This document shows positions 774 to 32,089 of a stretch of DNA of 34,826 nt, piece after piece (position 1 is the first letter of the stretch; the number at the start of each line of letters is the position of its first letter). The position numbers were made by a program, and so were the translations under genes. The notes beneath the pieces were generated by a model. That model saw only the letters and a program-made list of their open reading frames with translations. It made no database searches and had not been told where the DNA came from. The stretch comes from a virus (Duplodnaviria > Heunggongvirae > Uroviricota > Caudoviricetes): the IMG/VR virus record IMGVR_UViG_2877251553_000002; one strand, written 5' to 3'.

Positions 774-2311
774 ATGAGCAGCTCACTTCCTGACGATATC
801 AATGCACTGAAACGTCTCCTTGCCGAACAGGAGGCGCTGAACCGTGCCCTGCTGGAAAAGCTGAACGAGCGTGAACGCGAAATAGACCATCTGCAGGCAC
901 AGCTGGATAAGCTGCGCCGGATGAACTTCGGCAGCCGCTCCGAAAAAGTCTCCCGTCGTATCGCACAGATGGAAGCTGACCTGAAGGCACTTCAGAAAGA
1001 AAGTGATACCCTTACCGGTCGGGTTGACGACCCGGCCGTGCAGCGCCCGCTGCGTCAAACCCGCACCCGCAAACCGTTCCCGAATCACTCCCCCGCGATG
1101 AAAAACGGCTGCTGCCGGCAGCGTCATGCTGCCCGGAATGTGGAGGCTCACTGAGCTATCCGGGTGAGGATGCCGCCGAACAGCTGGAGTTGATGCGCAG
1201 CGTCTTCCGGGTTATCCGGACTGTACGTGAAAAGCATGCCTGTACTCAGTGCGATGCCATCGTGCAGGCCCCCGCGCCTTCACGGCCCATCGAGCGGGGT
1301 ATCGCAGGACCGGGGCTGCTGGCCCGCGTGCTGATCTCAAAGTATGCAGAGCACACCCCGCTGTACCGCCAGTATGAAATGTACGGACGCCAGGGCGTGG
1401 AGCTGAGTCGTTCACTGCTGTCGGGCTGGGTGGATGCATGCTGCCGGCTACTGTCACCGCTGGAAGAAGCGCTTCAGGACTATGTGCTGACTGACGGTAA
1501 GCTCCATGCTGATGACACGCCTGTCCCGGTGCTGTTGCCAGGCAATAAGAAAACGAAGACCGGGCGGTTATGGACCTACGTTCGTGACGACCGTAACGCC
1601 GGGTCAACGCTGGCGCCGGCGGTGTGGTTCGCTTACAGCCCGGACAGAAAAGGCATCCATCCGCAGACCCATCTTGCGGGGTTCAGTGGTGTACTGCAGG
1701 CGGATGCATACGCCGGGTTCAACGAGCTGTACCGGGATGGCCGGATAACGGAAGCCGCCTGTTGGGCTCACGCCCGCCGTAAAATCCACGATGTGCACGT
1801 TCGCACCCCGTCAGCCCTGACGGAGGAAGCGCTGAAACGGATCGGCGAACTGTACGCCATCGAGGCAGAGATAAGGGGAATGACGGCGGAGCAGCGCCTT
1901 GCCGAACGTCAGTTGAAAACGAAACCGCTGCTGAAATCCCTGGAAAGCTGGCTGCGTGAAAAGATGAAAACCCTGTCGCGACACTCAGAACTGGCGAAAG
2001 CGTTCGCATACGCCCTGAACCAGTGGCCGGCGCTGACGTACTATGCAGATGATGGCTGGGCTGAGGCGGACAATAACATCGCTGAAAATGCGTTGCGGAT
2101 GGTCAGTCTGGGCCGCAAAAACTACCTGTTCTTCGGTTCGGATCATGGAGGAGAGCGGGGAGCGCTGCTGTACAGCCTGATCGGGACGTGCAAACTGAAC
2201 GGAGTGGAGCCAGAAAGCTACCTCCGCTATGTCCTTGACGTCATAGCCGACTGGCCGATAAACCGGGTCGGCGAACTGCTCCCCTGGCGCGTAGCACTGC
2301 CGACTGAATAA
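774..2311 (+). pseudogene. IS66-family transposase TnpC (orf3), frameshifted
   Basis: ORFs 774-1154 and 1190-2311 together match the intact 512-aa TnpC of copy 3; C-tract at 1079-1081 has 3 C versus 4 C in copy 3. Confidence 0.8.
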
Positions 2312-7625: not shown

Positions 7626-8488
7626 GCTTAGTCAGCCGTTGTCTCCGGATGTCGCGTGCGCAGTTGCACGTCATTCTCAGACGAACCGATGACTGGATGG
7701 ATGGCCGCCGCAGTCGTCACACTGATGATACGGATGTGCTTCTCCGTATACACCATGTTATCGGAGAGCTGCCCACGTATGGTTATCGTCGGGTATGGGC
7801 GCTGCTTCGCAGACAGGCAGAACTTGATGGTATGCCTGCGATCAATGCCAAACGTGTTTACCGGATCATGCGCCAGAATGCGCTGTTGCTTGAGCGAAAA
7901 CCTGCTGTACCGCCATCGAAACGGGCACATACAGGCAGAGTGGCCGTGAAAGAAAGCAATCAGCGATGGTGCTCTGACGGGTTCGAGTTCTGCTGTGATA
8001 ACGGAGAGAGACTGCGTGTCACGTTCGCGCTGGACTGCTGTGATCGTGAGGCACTGCACTGGGCGGTGACTACCGGCGGCTTCAACAGTGAAACAGTACA
8101 GGACGTCATGCTGGGAGCGGTGGAACGCCGCTTCGGCAACGATCTTCCGTCGTCTCCAGTGGAGTGGCTGACGGATAATGGTTCATGCTACCGGGCTAAT
8201 GAAACACGCCAGTTCGCCCGGATGTTGGGACTTGAACCGAAGAACACGGCGGTGCGGAGTCCGGAGAGTAACGGAATAGCAGAGAGCTTCGTGAAAACGA
8301 TAAAGCGTGACTACATCAGTATCATGCCCAAACCAGACGGGTTAACGGCAGCAAAGAACCTTGCAGAGGCGTTCGAGCATTATAACGAATGGCATCCGCA
8401 TAGTGCGCTGGGTTATCGCTCGCCACGGGAATATCTGCGGCAGCGGGCTTGTAATGGGTTAAGTGATAACAGATGTCTGGAAATATAG
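7583..8488 (+). CDS. insD: IS2 InsD (OrfB transposase)
   Basis: 301-aa [33 protein letters not shown]... characteristic of IS2. Confidence 0.85.
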
Positions 8489-24194: not shown

Positions 24195-24269
<75 letters not shown>

Positions 24270-24272
24270 ATA

Positions 24273-24348
<76 letters not shown>

Positions 24349-24350
24349 GC

Positions 24351-24427
24351 TGGCCCACCACCGAGGACTCGAACCTCGCACCGTCAACTTAGAAGGTTGA
24401 TGCTCTATCCGGATGAGCTAGTGGTGG
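24351..24427 (-). tRNA. tRNA-Arg (anticodon UCU)
   Basis: Reverse complement CCACCACTAGCTCATCCGGATAGAGCATCAACCTTCTAAGTTGACGGTGCGAGGTTCGAGTCCTCGGTGGTGGGCCA; 7-bp acceptor stem, anticodon loop CTTCTAA. Confidence 0.75.
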
Positions 24428-24428
24428 T

Positions 24429-24505
24429 TGGTGGCCCTTGCTGGACTTGAACCAGCGACCTGGCGATTATGAGTCGCTCGCTCTGACCAACTGAGCTAAA
24501 GGGCC
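24429..24505 (-). tRNA. tRNA with CAU anticodon (tRNA-Ile2-like, or Met)
   Basis: Reverse complement GGCCCTTTAGCTCAGTTGGTCAGAGCGAGCGACTCATAATCGCCAGGTCGCTGGTTCAAGTCCAGCAAGGGCCACCA; resembles ileX-type tRNA. Confidence 0.8.
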
Positions 24506-28818: not shown

Positions 28819-29178
28819 TTACAACATTGTCAGTGCGTTAAGGCGGGATGTTTTTGGCTGACGCCAGTCCAGCTTATCGAGGAGCATTGCCAGTTGCGAG
28901 CGGGTAATGGATACCTTGCCGTCACGCACAGCAGGCCAGATAAACTGGCCTTCCTCCAGGCGTCTGGTGAACAGGCACAGACCATCAGCATCAGCCCACA
29001 GGATTTTAATCATGTCACCCCGTCGGCCACGGAAGATGAACAGGTGACCGGAGAAGGGATTATCATTCAGCACATGCTGTACCTGTTCACCCAGCCCGTT
29101 GAAAGACTTACGCATATCGGTTATCCCAGCAACGAGCCAGATGCGGGTGCCTGACGGGAGTGAGATCATCGTCCCCAC
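28819..29178 (-). CDS. IS66-family TnpB-like protein (divergent)
   Basis: MGTMISLPSGTRIWLVAGITDMRKSFNGL..., roughly 60 percent identical by eye to the ISEc8-like TnpB. Confidence 0.75.
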   Translation of the reverse strand: MGTMISLPSGTRIWLVAGITDMRKSFNGLGEQVQHVLNDNPFSGHLFIFRGRRGDMIKILWADADGLCLFTRRLEEGQFIWPAVRDGKVSITRSQLAMLLDKLDWRQPKTSRLNALTML

Positions 29179-29597
29179 CCGGTCAGTTCACGGATCAACA
29201 CTGTGAGCAGCTCTGGTGAAGGATTTTCCAGCGTCATGTTACCGTGACGGAACTCCACCTTGCAGGAGCTGGCACTAACTGTAGTCTGAGTAGATAAAGA
29301 CGGAGTAAGAGCAGCCACCGGTTCTTTCGGCTCATCCGGCGTTATCTCCACAGGTAATAATTCAACGCCAGTGTCAGAAGAGGTTGTTACCGGAAGACGC
29401 CGCGATATGCGCCCTTCGTTCTGCCAGAGCCTGAGCCATTTGAACAGCAGGTTATCATTGATATCGTGTTCCCGGGCAATACGGGCAACAGAGGCTCCTG
29501 GTTGTGAAGCCAGTTTAACCATTTGAAGTTTAAACTCATTTGAAAATGATCTGCGGGTTCTGCAGATAATGCTTTCTGTTCCATAACAGGTGTCCAC
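29166..29597 (-). CDS. IS66-family TnpA-like protein (divergent); start uncertain
   Basis: Contains the conserved ...DNLLFKWLRLWQNEG... segment of IS66 orf1 proteins. Confidence 0.65.
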   Translation of the reverse strand: MDTCYGTESIICRTRRSFSNEFKLQMVKLASQPGASVARIAREHDINDNLLFKWLRLWQNEGRISRRLPVTTSSDTGVELLPVEITPDEPKEPVAALTPSLSTQTTVSASSCKVEFRHGNMTLENPSPELLTVLIRELTGWGR

Positions 29598-29670
29598 TAG
29601 TTGAAAAGGTGGGCACCTACGTTACCAATACAGGCTTAATGGCTACATACGGCGGTCAGTTTACGCTTAC

Positions 29671-29944
29671 CAAAATACGCTGTTGCTTTTTTTAATATAT
29701 ATCGCTCAAGGCGAGCTTCATTTAACGCCTTACGCAGTTGCAGAATTTCAGATTCCAGTTCAGCCACCGTGCGGGAACCAGGAGTACCGAGCCCTTTTCT
29801 GGCGGCGGTAACCCATTGTCCTAAAGTGCCTTCAGGAAGGGATAATCGGGAAGCGCCTTCACTGATCGAAAGTTGATTTTCAAGAACCGTTCTGACAGCT
29901 TCGGCTTTGAACTCTTTAGAGTAACGTTGGTTTTTTCTGCTCAT
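29671..29944 (-). pseudogene. IS3-family OrfA, 3' truncated
   Basis: First ~91 codons of an IS600-like OrfA; ORF tail at 29636-29670 is IS66-derived. Confidence 0.6.
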
Positions 29945-30067: not shown

Positions 30068-30613
30068 TTATTTTAAGGAAAGCAACTGCTCTACGGTCAT
30101 GTTTTTAATTGCGCCCCGGTTTACAAGAGTCCAGCCCTGTTTTTCCAGATAAAACCGGAAAGTCTCCAGGGTACAGACCAGTGCGCCATCAGGAACGGTT
30201 TCGGTGAATTCGACATTGCCGAATTTGTCGAAGTGAACAACCAGAGTGCGACCATCACCCGGAATCATCTTGTCAGCAGGTGGGGTGTTATTCTGGCGCA
30301 GTTCGGCCTCCATGCGGTCGAACTCAGCAATGTAGGCTTCCTTGAATGTGGCGGCTTTTTTGCCCGTGAAGCCCATCACCAGGAAAACGAAGCCGTTTTT
30401 GGTGATTTGGTAGGCGTTATAAGAATTGCCGCGGTGTTCGAATTTAACCCGCGAAAAGTTGCTGGTTAAAAATAGTTCAGAACATTCGAGGGATTCTATT
30501 TTTTGAACAACATGGTGATGCTGCTTGCCAAAAAACTCAGCAATCGAAATAGAAGTAGTGACGGCGCGACCATTTTCGATGGTTACGTCAGGGTGAGAAA
30601 GGGTAGTAGCCAT
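30068..30613 (-). CDS. rha: phage regulatory protein Rha (antirepressor-like)
   Basis: Start ATG at 30613 with GAGGA 7 nt upstream; Rha-family signature ...SISIAEFFGKQHHHVVQKIESL...YQITKNGFVFLVMGFTGKKAATFKEAYIAEFDRMEAEL... Confidence 0.75.
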   Translation of the reverse strand: MATTLSHPDVTIENGRAVTTSISIAEFFGKQHHHVVQKIESLECSELFLTSNFSRVKFEHRGNSYNAYQITKNGFVFLVMGFTGKKAATFKEAYIAEFDRMEAELRQNNTPPADKMIPGDGRTLVVHFDKFGNVEFTETVPDGALVCTLETFRFYLEKQGWTLVNRGAIKNMTVEQLLSLK

Positions 30614-30695
30614 AATGACATCCTCAAGTGATAAGTTAATTAACTCACCAGCAGAGGTGCTAATCTCATGGGTGGTGAGACGCACAGGGTTAGCA

Positions 30696-30908
30696 CTACC
30701 GGTCACTCGAGAACCCGGCCAGCCTTGCGGCTGCCCCGCACGCCTCACCATAATTTGAATGTGGCTGTGCATTACGCATAAAAAAAACCGCTTCAGCGCG
30801 GTTATGCGCTCGAGTAACTTTCGGGGTGCTAATCCCGGCGCCCGTTTTATGAGGTGCAGGTGCATTATAATTCCACCCGTTCTGGTTTTCAATAGCTACA
30901 TTCAACAT
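30696..30908 (-). CDS. hypothetical 70-aa ORF with good ribosome site but an intrinsic terminator inside it
   Basis: AGGAAAGAG upstream of ATG at 30908; hairpin plus T8 at 30780-30803 lies mid-ORF, so coding status is doubtful. Confidence 0.2.
   Translation of the reverse strand: MLNVAIENQNGWNYNAPAPHKTGAGISTPKVTRAHNRAEAVFFMRNAQPHSNYGEACGAAARLAGFSSDR
30780..30803 (-). terminator. rho-independent terminator, minus strand, upstream of rha
   Basis: ACCGC-GCTGAA-GCGGT hairpin followed by 8 T on the minus strand, embedded in a longer palindrome CGCATAA...TTATGCG. Confidence 0.5.
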
Positions 30909-30930: not shown

Positions 30931-31085
30931 AAGTGAATTTTGTGATGCGGTGCCTAGTGCCTCCAGGTGACGTTAACCAGTTAACAATTACAGTCGGCTT
31001 TCCCACCCAAACCAATAAGGACTAACATGACTTTTAACTGTGCCGCGTGCGCTTAGCCGCATTCACCGCATCACAAAATTCACTT
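30931..31085. repeat. pair of 22-bp perfect inverted repeats (AAGTGAATTTTGTGATGCGGTG) separated by 111 bp
   Basis: Arm 1 at 30931-30952, reverse-complement arm at 31064-31085; spacer contains GTTAACCAGTTAAC. Confidence 0.8.
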
Positions 31086-31140
31086 TAAAAAGGGCGGACA
31101 TCAGCCAGCAATTAAACCGATGCCGCCAACTGGTACTTCA
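31086..31140 (-). ncRNA. DicF-like small RNA with intrinsic terminator
   Basis: Minus-strand sequence ...AGUUGGCGGCAUCGGUUUAAUUGCUGGCUGAUGUCCGCCCUUUUU resembles the DicF sRNA of the Qin dicB operon (GGCGG...CCGCC stem, U-run) and lies in the equivalent position downstream of the dicA-like gene; ends approximate. Confidence 0.45.
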
Positions 31141-31329
31141 CACAGCAATGTCGTTATTTACAACCGGAAGCGCACTCCCACCATTTAAATTTCACAGACA
31201 AGACCGACTCTTTATGAATACCGGAAATGCGCCTTCGTGTTGTGCCCGGTTTTATTTCACCACCTCCGGGCTTTGGTGGCCTCGGCTATACCTCTACAGC
31301 GAGAATATTGAATTAATCCAATAAATGGA

Positions 31330-31682: not shown

Positions 31683-32089
31683 TTATTTGTTTGCGCTTCT
31701 TTTGCGAGCTTTGAGTAGTTCTTCAAAAAGTTTGTTGAAATTTTCAACTCGAGCACGCATCTCTGACAACAGGGCCTTTTGCTCTGACTCAGGCAGTGCG
31801 TCGAACAGTTGAAGTAACTCTTTTTGATCTTCTGTCAGAATGGCTGGCTGATTATCCGGGATCGGTTCGCCTGGTTGTTTATCTTCATCCCAAAAAGAAG
31901 CCAAGTCGGTGAGCACTGAAGCGCTTGGCTCAGTGCGAATAATCTTTTCCCCGCCGGCTGTGTTTCATCTCTTTCCCATTGAGAAATTGTTACGTGAGCC
32001 ACTTTGACCAGCTTACCTAATGCGGCCTGAGACAGTTTTAATTTTTTACGCCTATGTAAGAGGCGAGCACCGAAGGTTTCGTTTTTCAT
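31683..32089 (-). pseudogene. dicA: DicA-like HTH (XRE/cI-type) repressor, frameshifted
   Basis: ORFs 31835-32089 (HTH: ...LSQAALGKLVKVAHVTISQWERDETQPAGKRLFALSQALQCSPTWLLFG) and 31683-31916 (...LPESEQKALLSEMRARVENFNKLFEELLKARKR) overlap in different frames and together resemble DicA. Confidence 0.7.

Follow-up and report, generated by a model that had tools for sequence, protein, structure and literature searches.

The founding member of the Rfam family RF01695 is the C4 RNA of the immI locus of phages P1 and P7. In P1 this RNA is cut out of the operon transcript, with RNase P acting at its 5′ end, and in the P1/P7 pair differences in the a and b sequences give heteroimmunity; the a and b sites and the heteroimmunity were reportedly described by Citron and Schuster in 1990 and by Biere et al. 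in 1992. Related RNAs act in P4 and in the Salmonella prophage Gifsy-1, and the outputs of the three systems differ: translation is blocked, with Rho termination, in P1, transcription is terminated in P4, and IsrK activates in Gifsy-1.

The P4 immunity region consists of seqA, the CI RNA and seqC within the nested eta/kil frames. CI lies inside eta, as does the constitutive promoter, and full-length eta is translated only from an upstream promoter; this translation prevents RNA-dependent termination (PMC10111431). In Gifsy-1 the corresponding locus is isrK-orf45-anrP, in which orf45 is also known as STnc1160 (Hershko-Shalev et al., 2016; PMC4825925). One helix of the Gifsy-1 “structure A,” helix b-I (a1:a′), was proven there by the compensatory mutation pairs G28A/C162U and G31A/C159U, and the effect of IsrK on translation was 139-fold (PMC4825925). 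Hfq binding, and trans-activation by IsrK of translation of the read-through mRNA, are known only for Gifsy-1 (PMC4825925).

The window analyzed here is a 34,826-nt stretch of DNA from a virus of the class Caudoviricetes (IMG/VR record IMGVR_UViG_2877251553_000002), and it carries a further instance of the kind represented by P1/P7 c4, P4 CI/seqA and Gifsy-1 IsrK/STnc1160. A first-pass annotation, made from the letters alone, had noted a 70-codon ORF with a terminator in its middle upstream of rha, had judged it to be a structured-RNA control element for rha more than a protein gene, and had suggested structure prediction and a covariance search as a check. We carried out both, and they returned a tandem of two known RNAs: isrK (RF01394; 63.8 bits vs. 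a gathering score of 50, model positions 1–77 of 77) and, starting 25 nt downstream of it, C4 (RF01695; 78.6 bits vs. 45, full length, model positions 1–87 of 87). With both matches above their gathering scores, covariation in C4, and C4 loops that are complementary to the ribosome site of rha, the structured-RNA view is supported. The gene downstream is indeed rha; its 181-aa product matches Pfam Phage_pRha (PF09669) with 92.3 bits against a cut-off of 29.9 over residues 19–102. Coordinates of all features are collected in Table 1.

The same arrangement, isrK and then C4 about 24 nt apart, was present in all 15 annotated relatives that we fetched, among them Stx phages, ST64B, cdtI, P88, a Yersinia phage, an Actinobacillus phage and Gifsy-1. 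The record of one Stx phage already lists both RNAs as annotated features. In the satellite phage P4 the isrK model falls on the seqA region and the C4 model on CI, and the IsrK-like RNA of the window is the equivalent of P4 seqA and of the a1/b1 leader of P1.

Table 1. Features of the putative IsrK-C4-rha module, its surroundings in the window, and matching modules in two other phages.
Feature	Position	Strand	Description
Putative RNA immunity module, whole	30892..30611	-	
70-codon ORF of the first-pass annotation	30696..30908	-	5′ part of the long “Ash-Rha” frame of relatives, cut by an extra T
Predicted sigma-70 promoter of the IsrK/C4/rha transcript	30864..30892	-	TTGAAA, 17-nt spacer, TATAAT
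IsrK-like small RNA	30857..30781	-	Rfam RF01394; two 5′ hairpins and a terminator hairpin
Box a1 (UUAGCAC)	30826..30832	-	Loop of IsrK hairpin 2; 7/7 Watson-Crick pairs with a′ of C4
Box b1 (UUACUCGAGCG, core ACUCGAG)	30807..30817	-	In IsrK; 10/11 pairs with loop b′ of C4
Intrinsic terminator	30780..30803	-	Stem AACCGC/GCGGUU and U8; 3′ end of short IsrK
C4/CI-type antisense RNA	30755..30668	-	Rfam RF01695; 17-bp closing helix, hairpin 1, hairpin 2 with loop b′
Conserved AUG in the 5′ arm of C4	30749..30751	-	Equivalent to the Gifsy-1 orf45 start (numbering from PMC4825925)
Loop b′ (GUUCUCGAGUGA; CUCGAGUGA)	30703..30714	-	In C4 hairpin 2
a′ (GUGCUAA)	30690..30696	-	Single-stranded, in C4; the UAG stop of the 70-codon ORF falls here
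Box a2 (GAUUAGCACC)	30656..30665	-	In the rha leader, just after C4; exact 10-nt repeat of the a1 region
Box b2 (UCACUUGAGGA)	30621..30631	-	Complementary to loop b′; holds the rha Shine-Dalgarno sequence GAGGA (30625..30621)
rha, putative regulated gene, 181 aa	30068..30613	-	ATG at 30613; Pfam PF09669 Phage_pRha; PHROG 995/518, Rha-like regulator
DicF-like RNA	31092-31142	-	Weak match to RF00039
155-bp inverted-repeat element	30931-31085		
HTH (DicA-like) repressor	31683-32089	-	Split into two overlapping ORFs
IS genes	28819-29944	-	IS3-family HTH_Tnp_1 OrfA, second HTH_Tnp_1 ORF, IS66 TnpB
Four clustered tRNA genes	24198-24505	-	Rfam tRNA, 56–70 bits
Same module in phage P88 (L011)	857-1087		
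Same module in P4 (L136)	7888-8175		

The promoter agrees with the consensus at 11 of 12 positions. Its −10 element ends 7 nt upstream of where the isrK model begins, which puts the predicted +1 at about 30857. The 70-codon ORF contains this promoter and has its ATG upstream of it. Across all 16 aligned loci, TTGA and TAnAnT stand at a constant distance from the 5′ end of isrK, despite differing flanks. The terminator that had been placed inside the ORF was recovered by our scan (AACCGCGCUGAAGCGG followed by U8), and the larger palindrome said to surround it corresponds to 30809..30774 (fold −16.1 kcal/mol, z = −2.1). The window thus has the promoter and the Rho-independent terminator (stem and U8) that belong to an isrK locus, and read-through of the terminator is predicted. 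Folded alone, IsrK was no more stable than shuffled sequence (z = −0.66); the single-sequence fold being uninformative, we therefore relied on comparative evidence, and hairpins 1 and 2 co-vary among 72 sequences. The separate Rfam model for the upstream boxes, c4-a1b1 (RF03163), gave no match in the window at E ≤ 1, though the a1 and b1 boxes are present; among relatives, Gifsy-1 (L002), L010 and L012 pass this model, and L013, L009 and P4 score below threshold.

For C4, folding and covariation agree. The window C4 alone folds into the family consensus (MFE −46.9 kcal/mol, z = −4.15), with the a′ stretch single-stranded and a conserved CACCACC tail at the 3′ end. In an alignment of 64 diverse sequences, the consensus comprises 27 pairs, and 99.7% of cells are paired, compared to 35–48% in slid controls. 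Compensatory changes occur in 14 of the pairs, with 200 double-change cells, a level reached by none of 500 shuffles.

The earlier reading had also pointed to an imperfect inverted repeat flanking the terminator. The repeat is real, with arms at 30687-30696/30826-30835 and 30702-30711/30809-30818, and it is the pairing of the IsrK boxes a1 and b1 with a′ and b′ of C4. In a 258-nt read-through RNA the arms come together in a single long helix (−104.2 kcal/mol, z = −4.8; 0 of 200 shuffles were as stable). The positions of the Gifsy-1 compensatory mutations fall in a1 and a′ in our alignment, and the window helix is the homolog of helix b-I. Downstream, a′ pairs with a2 at 7/7 positions and b′ with b2 at 11/11, two of them G-U; the complementarity of b1 to b′ is weaker than that of b2. 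As in P1 and P7, a′ and b′ can pair with two sites upstream and two downstream, and the downstream pair covers the ribosome site.

We scanned viral contigs with a C4 pattern and obtained 95 non-identical canonical modules; six chance matches of the pattern (e.g., L024, L028 and L091) were removed by requiring the T-run and hairpin 2. With loop b′ taken by fixed-position parsing, the 95 modules hold 15 a′ types and 37 b′ types in 55 combinations. In the alignment of relatives a1, a′ and a2 change together, and likewise b1, b′ and b2, and the complementarity of the inverted repeat is kept with different sequences in the 55 distinct related modules, beyond chance. Duplex energies with the C4 core set the real target apart from shuffled ones only slightly in the case of IsrK (−33.3 against −23.9 ± 3.5) and more clearly in that of the rha leader (−31.1 against −17.7 ± 3.1), and we therefore compared complementarity in cognate and non-cognate combinations. 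Full complementarity of a′ to a2 was found in 100% of cognate combinations (55/55) vs. 3.9% of non-cognate ones; the values for a′ to a1 were 93% of the 55 combinations vs. 7.7%, and those for b′ to b2 were 71% vs. 7.8%.

Taken at about 85% probability, our main reading is that the stretch is an RNA immunity module of the P1-c4/P4-CI/Gifsy-1-IsrK type that gates the antirepressor-like gene rha. Transcription would start from the sigma-70 promoter inside the apparent ORF, and most transcripts would end at the GC-stem/U8 terminator as a short IsrK carrying boxes a1 and b1. Transcripts that read through would yield C4, whose long closing helix would present loop b′ and the single-stranded a′; these would pair with a2 and b2 of the rha leader, leaving rha silent. 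Because b2 contains the rha Shine-Dalgarno sequence, this pairing should block translation of rha, and it may also favor premature termination, as in P1 and P4. IsrK has the same two boxes and so, acting in cis or in trans, would compete for the C4 loops, shifting the balance toward rha expression, a titration of the sort shown for Gifsy-1 IsrK. The conserved AUG in C4 precedes the rha ATG by 46 codons in the same frame, so a ribosome starting there would run into rha; 64 of 91 modules have this AUG in phase with the downstream ATG. Since the P1, P4 and Gifsy-1 relatives differ in output, we can only infer in which direction, and chiefly at which level, this locus is controlled. Processing of the RNAs is predicted as well.

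It is possible, if rather doubtful, that the module acts mainly through transcription termination as in P4, and that occlusion of the rha ribosome site is incidental. P4 has the same isrK-like and C4-like pair, and its CI:seqA/seqC pairing controls termination (PMC10111431; PMC4825925); here, the terminator sits between the a1/b1 boxes and C4, and b1 abuts the extended terminator stem. However, the overlap of b2 with the Shine-Dalgarno sequence is kept in almost all modules while the b sequences change, which points to selection for occlusion of the ribosome site, and the Gifsy-1 effect is mostly translational (139-fold vs. 8-fold; PMC4825925).

The 70-codon ORF itself is present as listed, with an ATG start and a 70-aa product, and its ribosome site is plausible (GAUGAAAGGAAAGAGAA before the AUG, with AGGA 7 nt from it); both ATG and ribosome site are probably genuine. 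Yet this form of the ORF is peculiar to the window. Among 51 Rha-type modules the T-run of the terminator is T6 in 34, T7 in 16 and T8 in the window only, one U more than in any relative examined, and the ORF exists in the window because of this one extra T. In the closest relative, which is 99.6% identical over 1271 nt, the extra T is the sole indel. All eight relatives that share the ATG have T7; in each of them a single long ORF extends the frame through C4 and into rha, and the stop and last 28 residues of the 70-codon ORF are absent. Because of a 1-nt difference in the T-run, then, the C-terminal third of the 70-aa product is missing even from the 99.6%-identical relative. Exact searches of complete E. 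coli genomes and of a set with one genome per species found no T8 version, and the extra T is either a real mutation or a sequencing error.

Matches of the 70-aa product to protein families are likewise confined to the part encoded before the T-run. PHROG 995 matches residues 1–45 only, and Pfam Phage_ASH (PF10554) matches residues 14–54 only, at 17.6 bits and below its cut-off of 26 bits. The first-pass annotation had named amino-acid conservation of the product, with variation at synonymous sites, as the observation that would speak for a protein, and we compared conservation of the ORF with that of the structure: the RNA pairs are compensated and the codon positions are flat, and given this and the unshared C-terminal third, no such conservation was found. 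To read the ORF as an independent small-protein gene, or as a classical leader peptide in trp-type attenuation, is scarcely credible to us. A good ribosome site, an ATG and a terminator in mid-ORF are what such a reading would draw on; the promoter that feeds the terminator, however, lies downstream of the ORF's ATG, the frame has no coding periodicity, the family matches cover only the part before the T-run, and 8/8 relatives with the same ATG are without the stop. Together, these results largely refute it. Judged from the sequences compared here, the 70-codon ORF is neither a gene of its own nor a conserved gene.

What the ORF does represent is the start of a longer frame. In relatives the long ORF is a 279-aa “Rha family” protein of PGAP, which applies the Rha annotation to the long form in at least 394 E. 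coli genomes. In 49 of 51 Rha-type modules the long rha frame can be followed upstream across C4, IsrK and the promoter without a stop. Column frequencies over 58 sequences predict about 47 stops in the rha frame, and none is seen in this sample, which was chosen for open frames (the unconditional count is the 49 of 51); the other two frames hold stops near expectation by the same approximation, 152 observed vs. 132 expected and 229 vs. 233. Position counts, also an approximation, give 0 polymorphic stop positions in the rha frame vs. 23 and 22 in the other two, with the rha frame holding about 27% of the single substitutions able to create a stop. On the unbroken frame, Phage_ASH scores 61 bits in L003 and 55 bits in L006, and this Pfam family matches exactly the translated RNA module.

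One could take these results to mean that the long “Ash-Rha” frame encodes a genuine two-domain protein, that the RNA matches are secondary, and that the window carries a frameshifted pseudogene. The curated Pfam match in L003 and L006, the avoidance of stops in the frame, the PGAP calls and the overlapping stop and start codons of tandem Ash-Rha copies would fit that account. We nevertheless consider it very unlikely. Nucleotide diversity of the long frame at codon positions 1/2/3 is 0.294/0.305/0.297, unlike that of the adjoining rha CDS (0.315/0.254/0.498), so that the third-position excess of a sequence evolving as protein is absent from the translated module. Substitutions instead follow RNA pairing, as in the 14 compensatory pairs of C4, and the a and b boxes are swapped as complementary triplets that alter the “protein” of the Ash frame radically. 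A conserved promoter and terminator also lie inside the frame, and the P4 ORF that matches Phage_ASH is the old “cI protein” ORF over the CI RNA.

Avoidance of stops without coding periodicity instead fits translation through the module, as in P4 eta, and by this analogy the long frame is probably translated through in some transcripts without being conserved as a protein. Transcripts arriving from the early-left operon upstream would include the ATG at 30908, and in relatives ribosomes would translate them through the module, overriding the RNA block. That translation of the long ORF from an upstream promoter would suppress the block is something we infer from the stop avoidance and from P4 (PMC10111431). 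The eta/kil-type long ORF into rha is present in 8/8 relatives with the same ATG and is broken in the window by the T8 frameshift. As the window frame stops inside C4 at UAG 30698..30696, either the override is broken here or the extra T is an error. For rha itself, the start is most likely the ATG that follows GAGGA, not the TTG at 30892 or an upstream ATG.

Public annotations of several relatives stretch the Rha or “antirepressor” CDS over IsrK and C4 (L003, 2582-3421; L006, 244-1395; L007; L008), and in ST64B, cdtI and Stx2a_WGPS2 the annotated CDS reaches a further 360 nt upstream, to the cII stop codon. In some viral contigs (L048, 9289-11266 on the minus strand, and also L033 and L125), two or three IsrK-C4-Rha units follow one another at intervals of about 656 nt, each with its own combination of a and b boxes. 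The stop and start codons of these tandem Ash-Rha ORFs overlap, and one contig has three units with three a/b specificities; they resemble arrays of heteroimmune antirepressor cassettes.

The module is part of a Rac-like prophage, where the order on the minus strand is HTH repressor (frameshifted), DUF1391 gene, DicF-like RNA, 155-bp inverted-repeat element, IsrK-C4-rha and IS elements; Cro-like and YdaT-like genes diverge from the repressor on its other side. The repressor is split by an indel at 31891, where its G-run is GGG vs. GGGG in the intact 135-aa protein of E. coli ETEC1738, and there are several other homopolymer-length differences nearby. Either the prophage is decaying or the sequence contains homopolymer errors; IS elements also sit directly downstream of rha, and the module may no longer be functional in this prophage. 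The DicF-like RNA (28.6 bits, below the gathering score of 48; E = 7e-4) comes with a stem-loop and T-run of its own, with a terminator-like site at 31124..31097, and is placed between the DUF1391 gene and the IsrK promoter, as dicF is in the dicB operon of the Qin prophage.

A perfect 22-nt inverted repeat (AAGTGAATTTTGTGATGCGGTG) delimits the 155-bp element, which weakly matches Rfam STnc100 (30.7 bits vs. 47). Of 5426 complete E. coli genomes, 4577 carry the element, at a median copy number of 2 and a maximum of 9. It is also found in many phages, and it adjoins dicB in Qin-like prophages; it might be a processing hairpin of the early-left transcript. On the other side of the module, the IS genes begin about 60 nt past the end of rha. 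Homology to the related prophage does not extend beyond about 30009, and the ydaE-recE portion of the early-left operon has accordingly been displaced or lost. The window also holds a cluster of four tRNA genes (Table 1).

Among the described systems, Gifsy-1 (L002) resembles the locus in its two Rfam RNAs, which agree in kind, order and spacing, in an IsrK with its own promoter and a leaky terminator, in a conserved AUG in the 5′ arm of C4, and in an antirepressor-type gene downstream. That gene is ORF6N/AnrP in Gifsy-1 and Rha here; the 45-codon orf45 of Gifsy-1 is a frame of its own, its stop overlapping the start of anrP, whereas in the window the frame is fused in phase to rha. The box sequences also differ (GGCGU in Gifsy-1 vs. 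AGCAC here), as does position, after Q in Gifsy-1 and in the early-left operon of a Rac-like prophage in the window. The likeness to P4 is in the constitutive promoter inside a long ORF begun upstream and in the Ash match of the translated module. Relatives of the window resemble P4 in having a long frame open through the module, unlike the window itself, where that frame is broken by the T8; the two RNAs are about 107 nt apart in P4 vs. 25 nt here, and the target in P4 is termination in the replication (alpha) operon, not rha. In P1, icd lies between c4 and ant, and Ant is regulated; the window has Rha and no separate icd or orf45 cistron. By these comparisons, the window would differ from the studied cases in the regulated gene, in the missing icd/orf45 cistron and in a/b specificity. 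The IsrK-C4 module precedes different genes in different phages, namely Rha, ORF6N/AnrP and the P4 epsilon-type “Derepression” protein, and from its position before various anti-repressor functions it appears to be a portable cassette.

For the window, the annotation should be corrected by dropping the 70-codon ORF as a gene, annotating two non-coding RNAs and giving 30613 as the most likely start of rha. Gene callers and Pfam have taken the translated RNA module for the “Ash” domain of Rha proteins, a domain listed as one of unknown function in work on Stx phages (PMC8951638). We tentatively suggest, at somewhat less than even odds, that “Ash” (PF10554) of the Rha regulators in lambdoid and Stx prophages is no protein domain but the translated IsrK-C4 module. 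Its frame would be kept free of stops, without amino-acid constraint, to let ribosomes that travel on early transcripts from upstream pass through the module and switch off the RNA block. The idea of the Ash domain as an RNA switch kept open for ribosomes is only partly anticipated in the literature. If it is true, the eta mechanism of P4 would be generalized to antirepressor control in hundreds of prophages, and specificity would be encoded by combinations of a and b boxes (15 × 37 types, sometimes with three modules in tandem). Because the switch would control antirepressor-type genes, it would therefore control prophage induction, in Stx phages and in other prophages.
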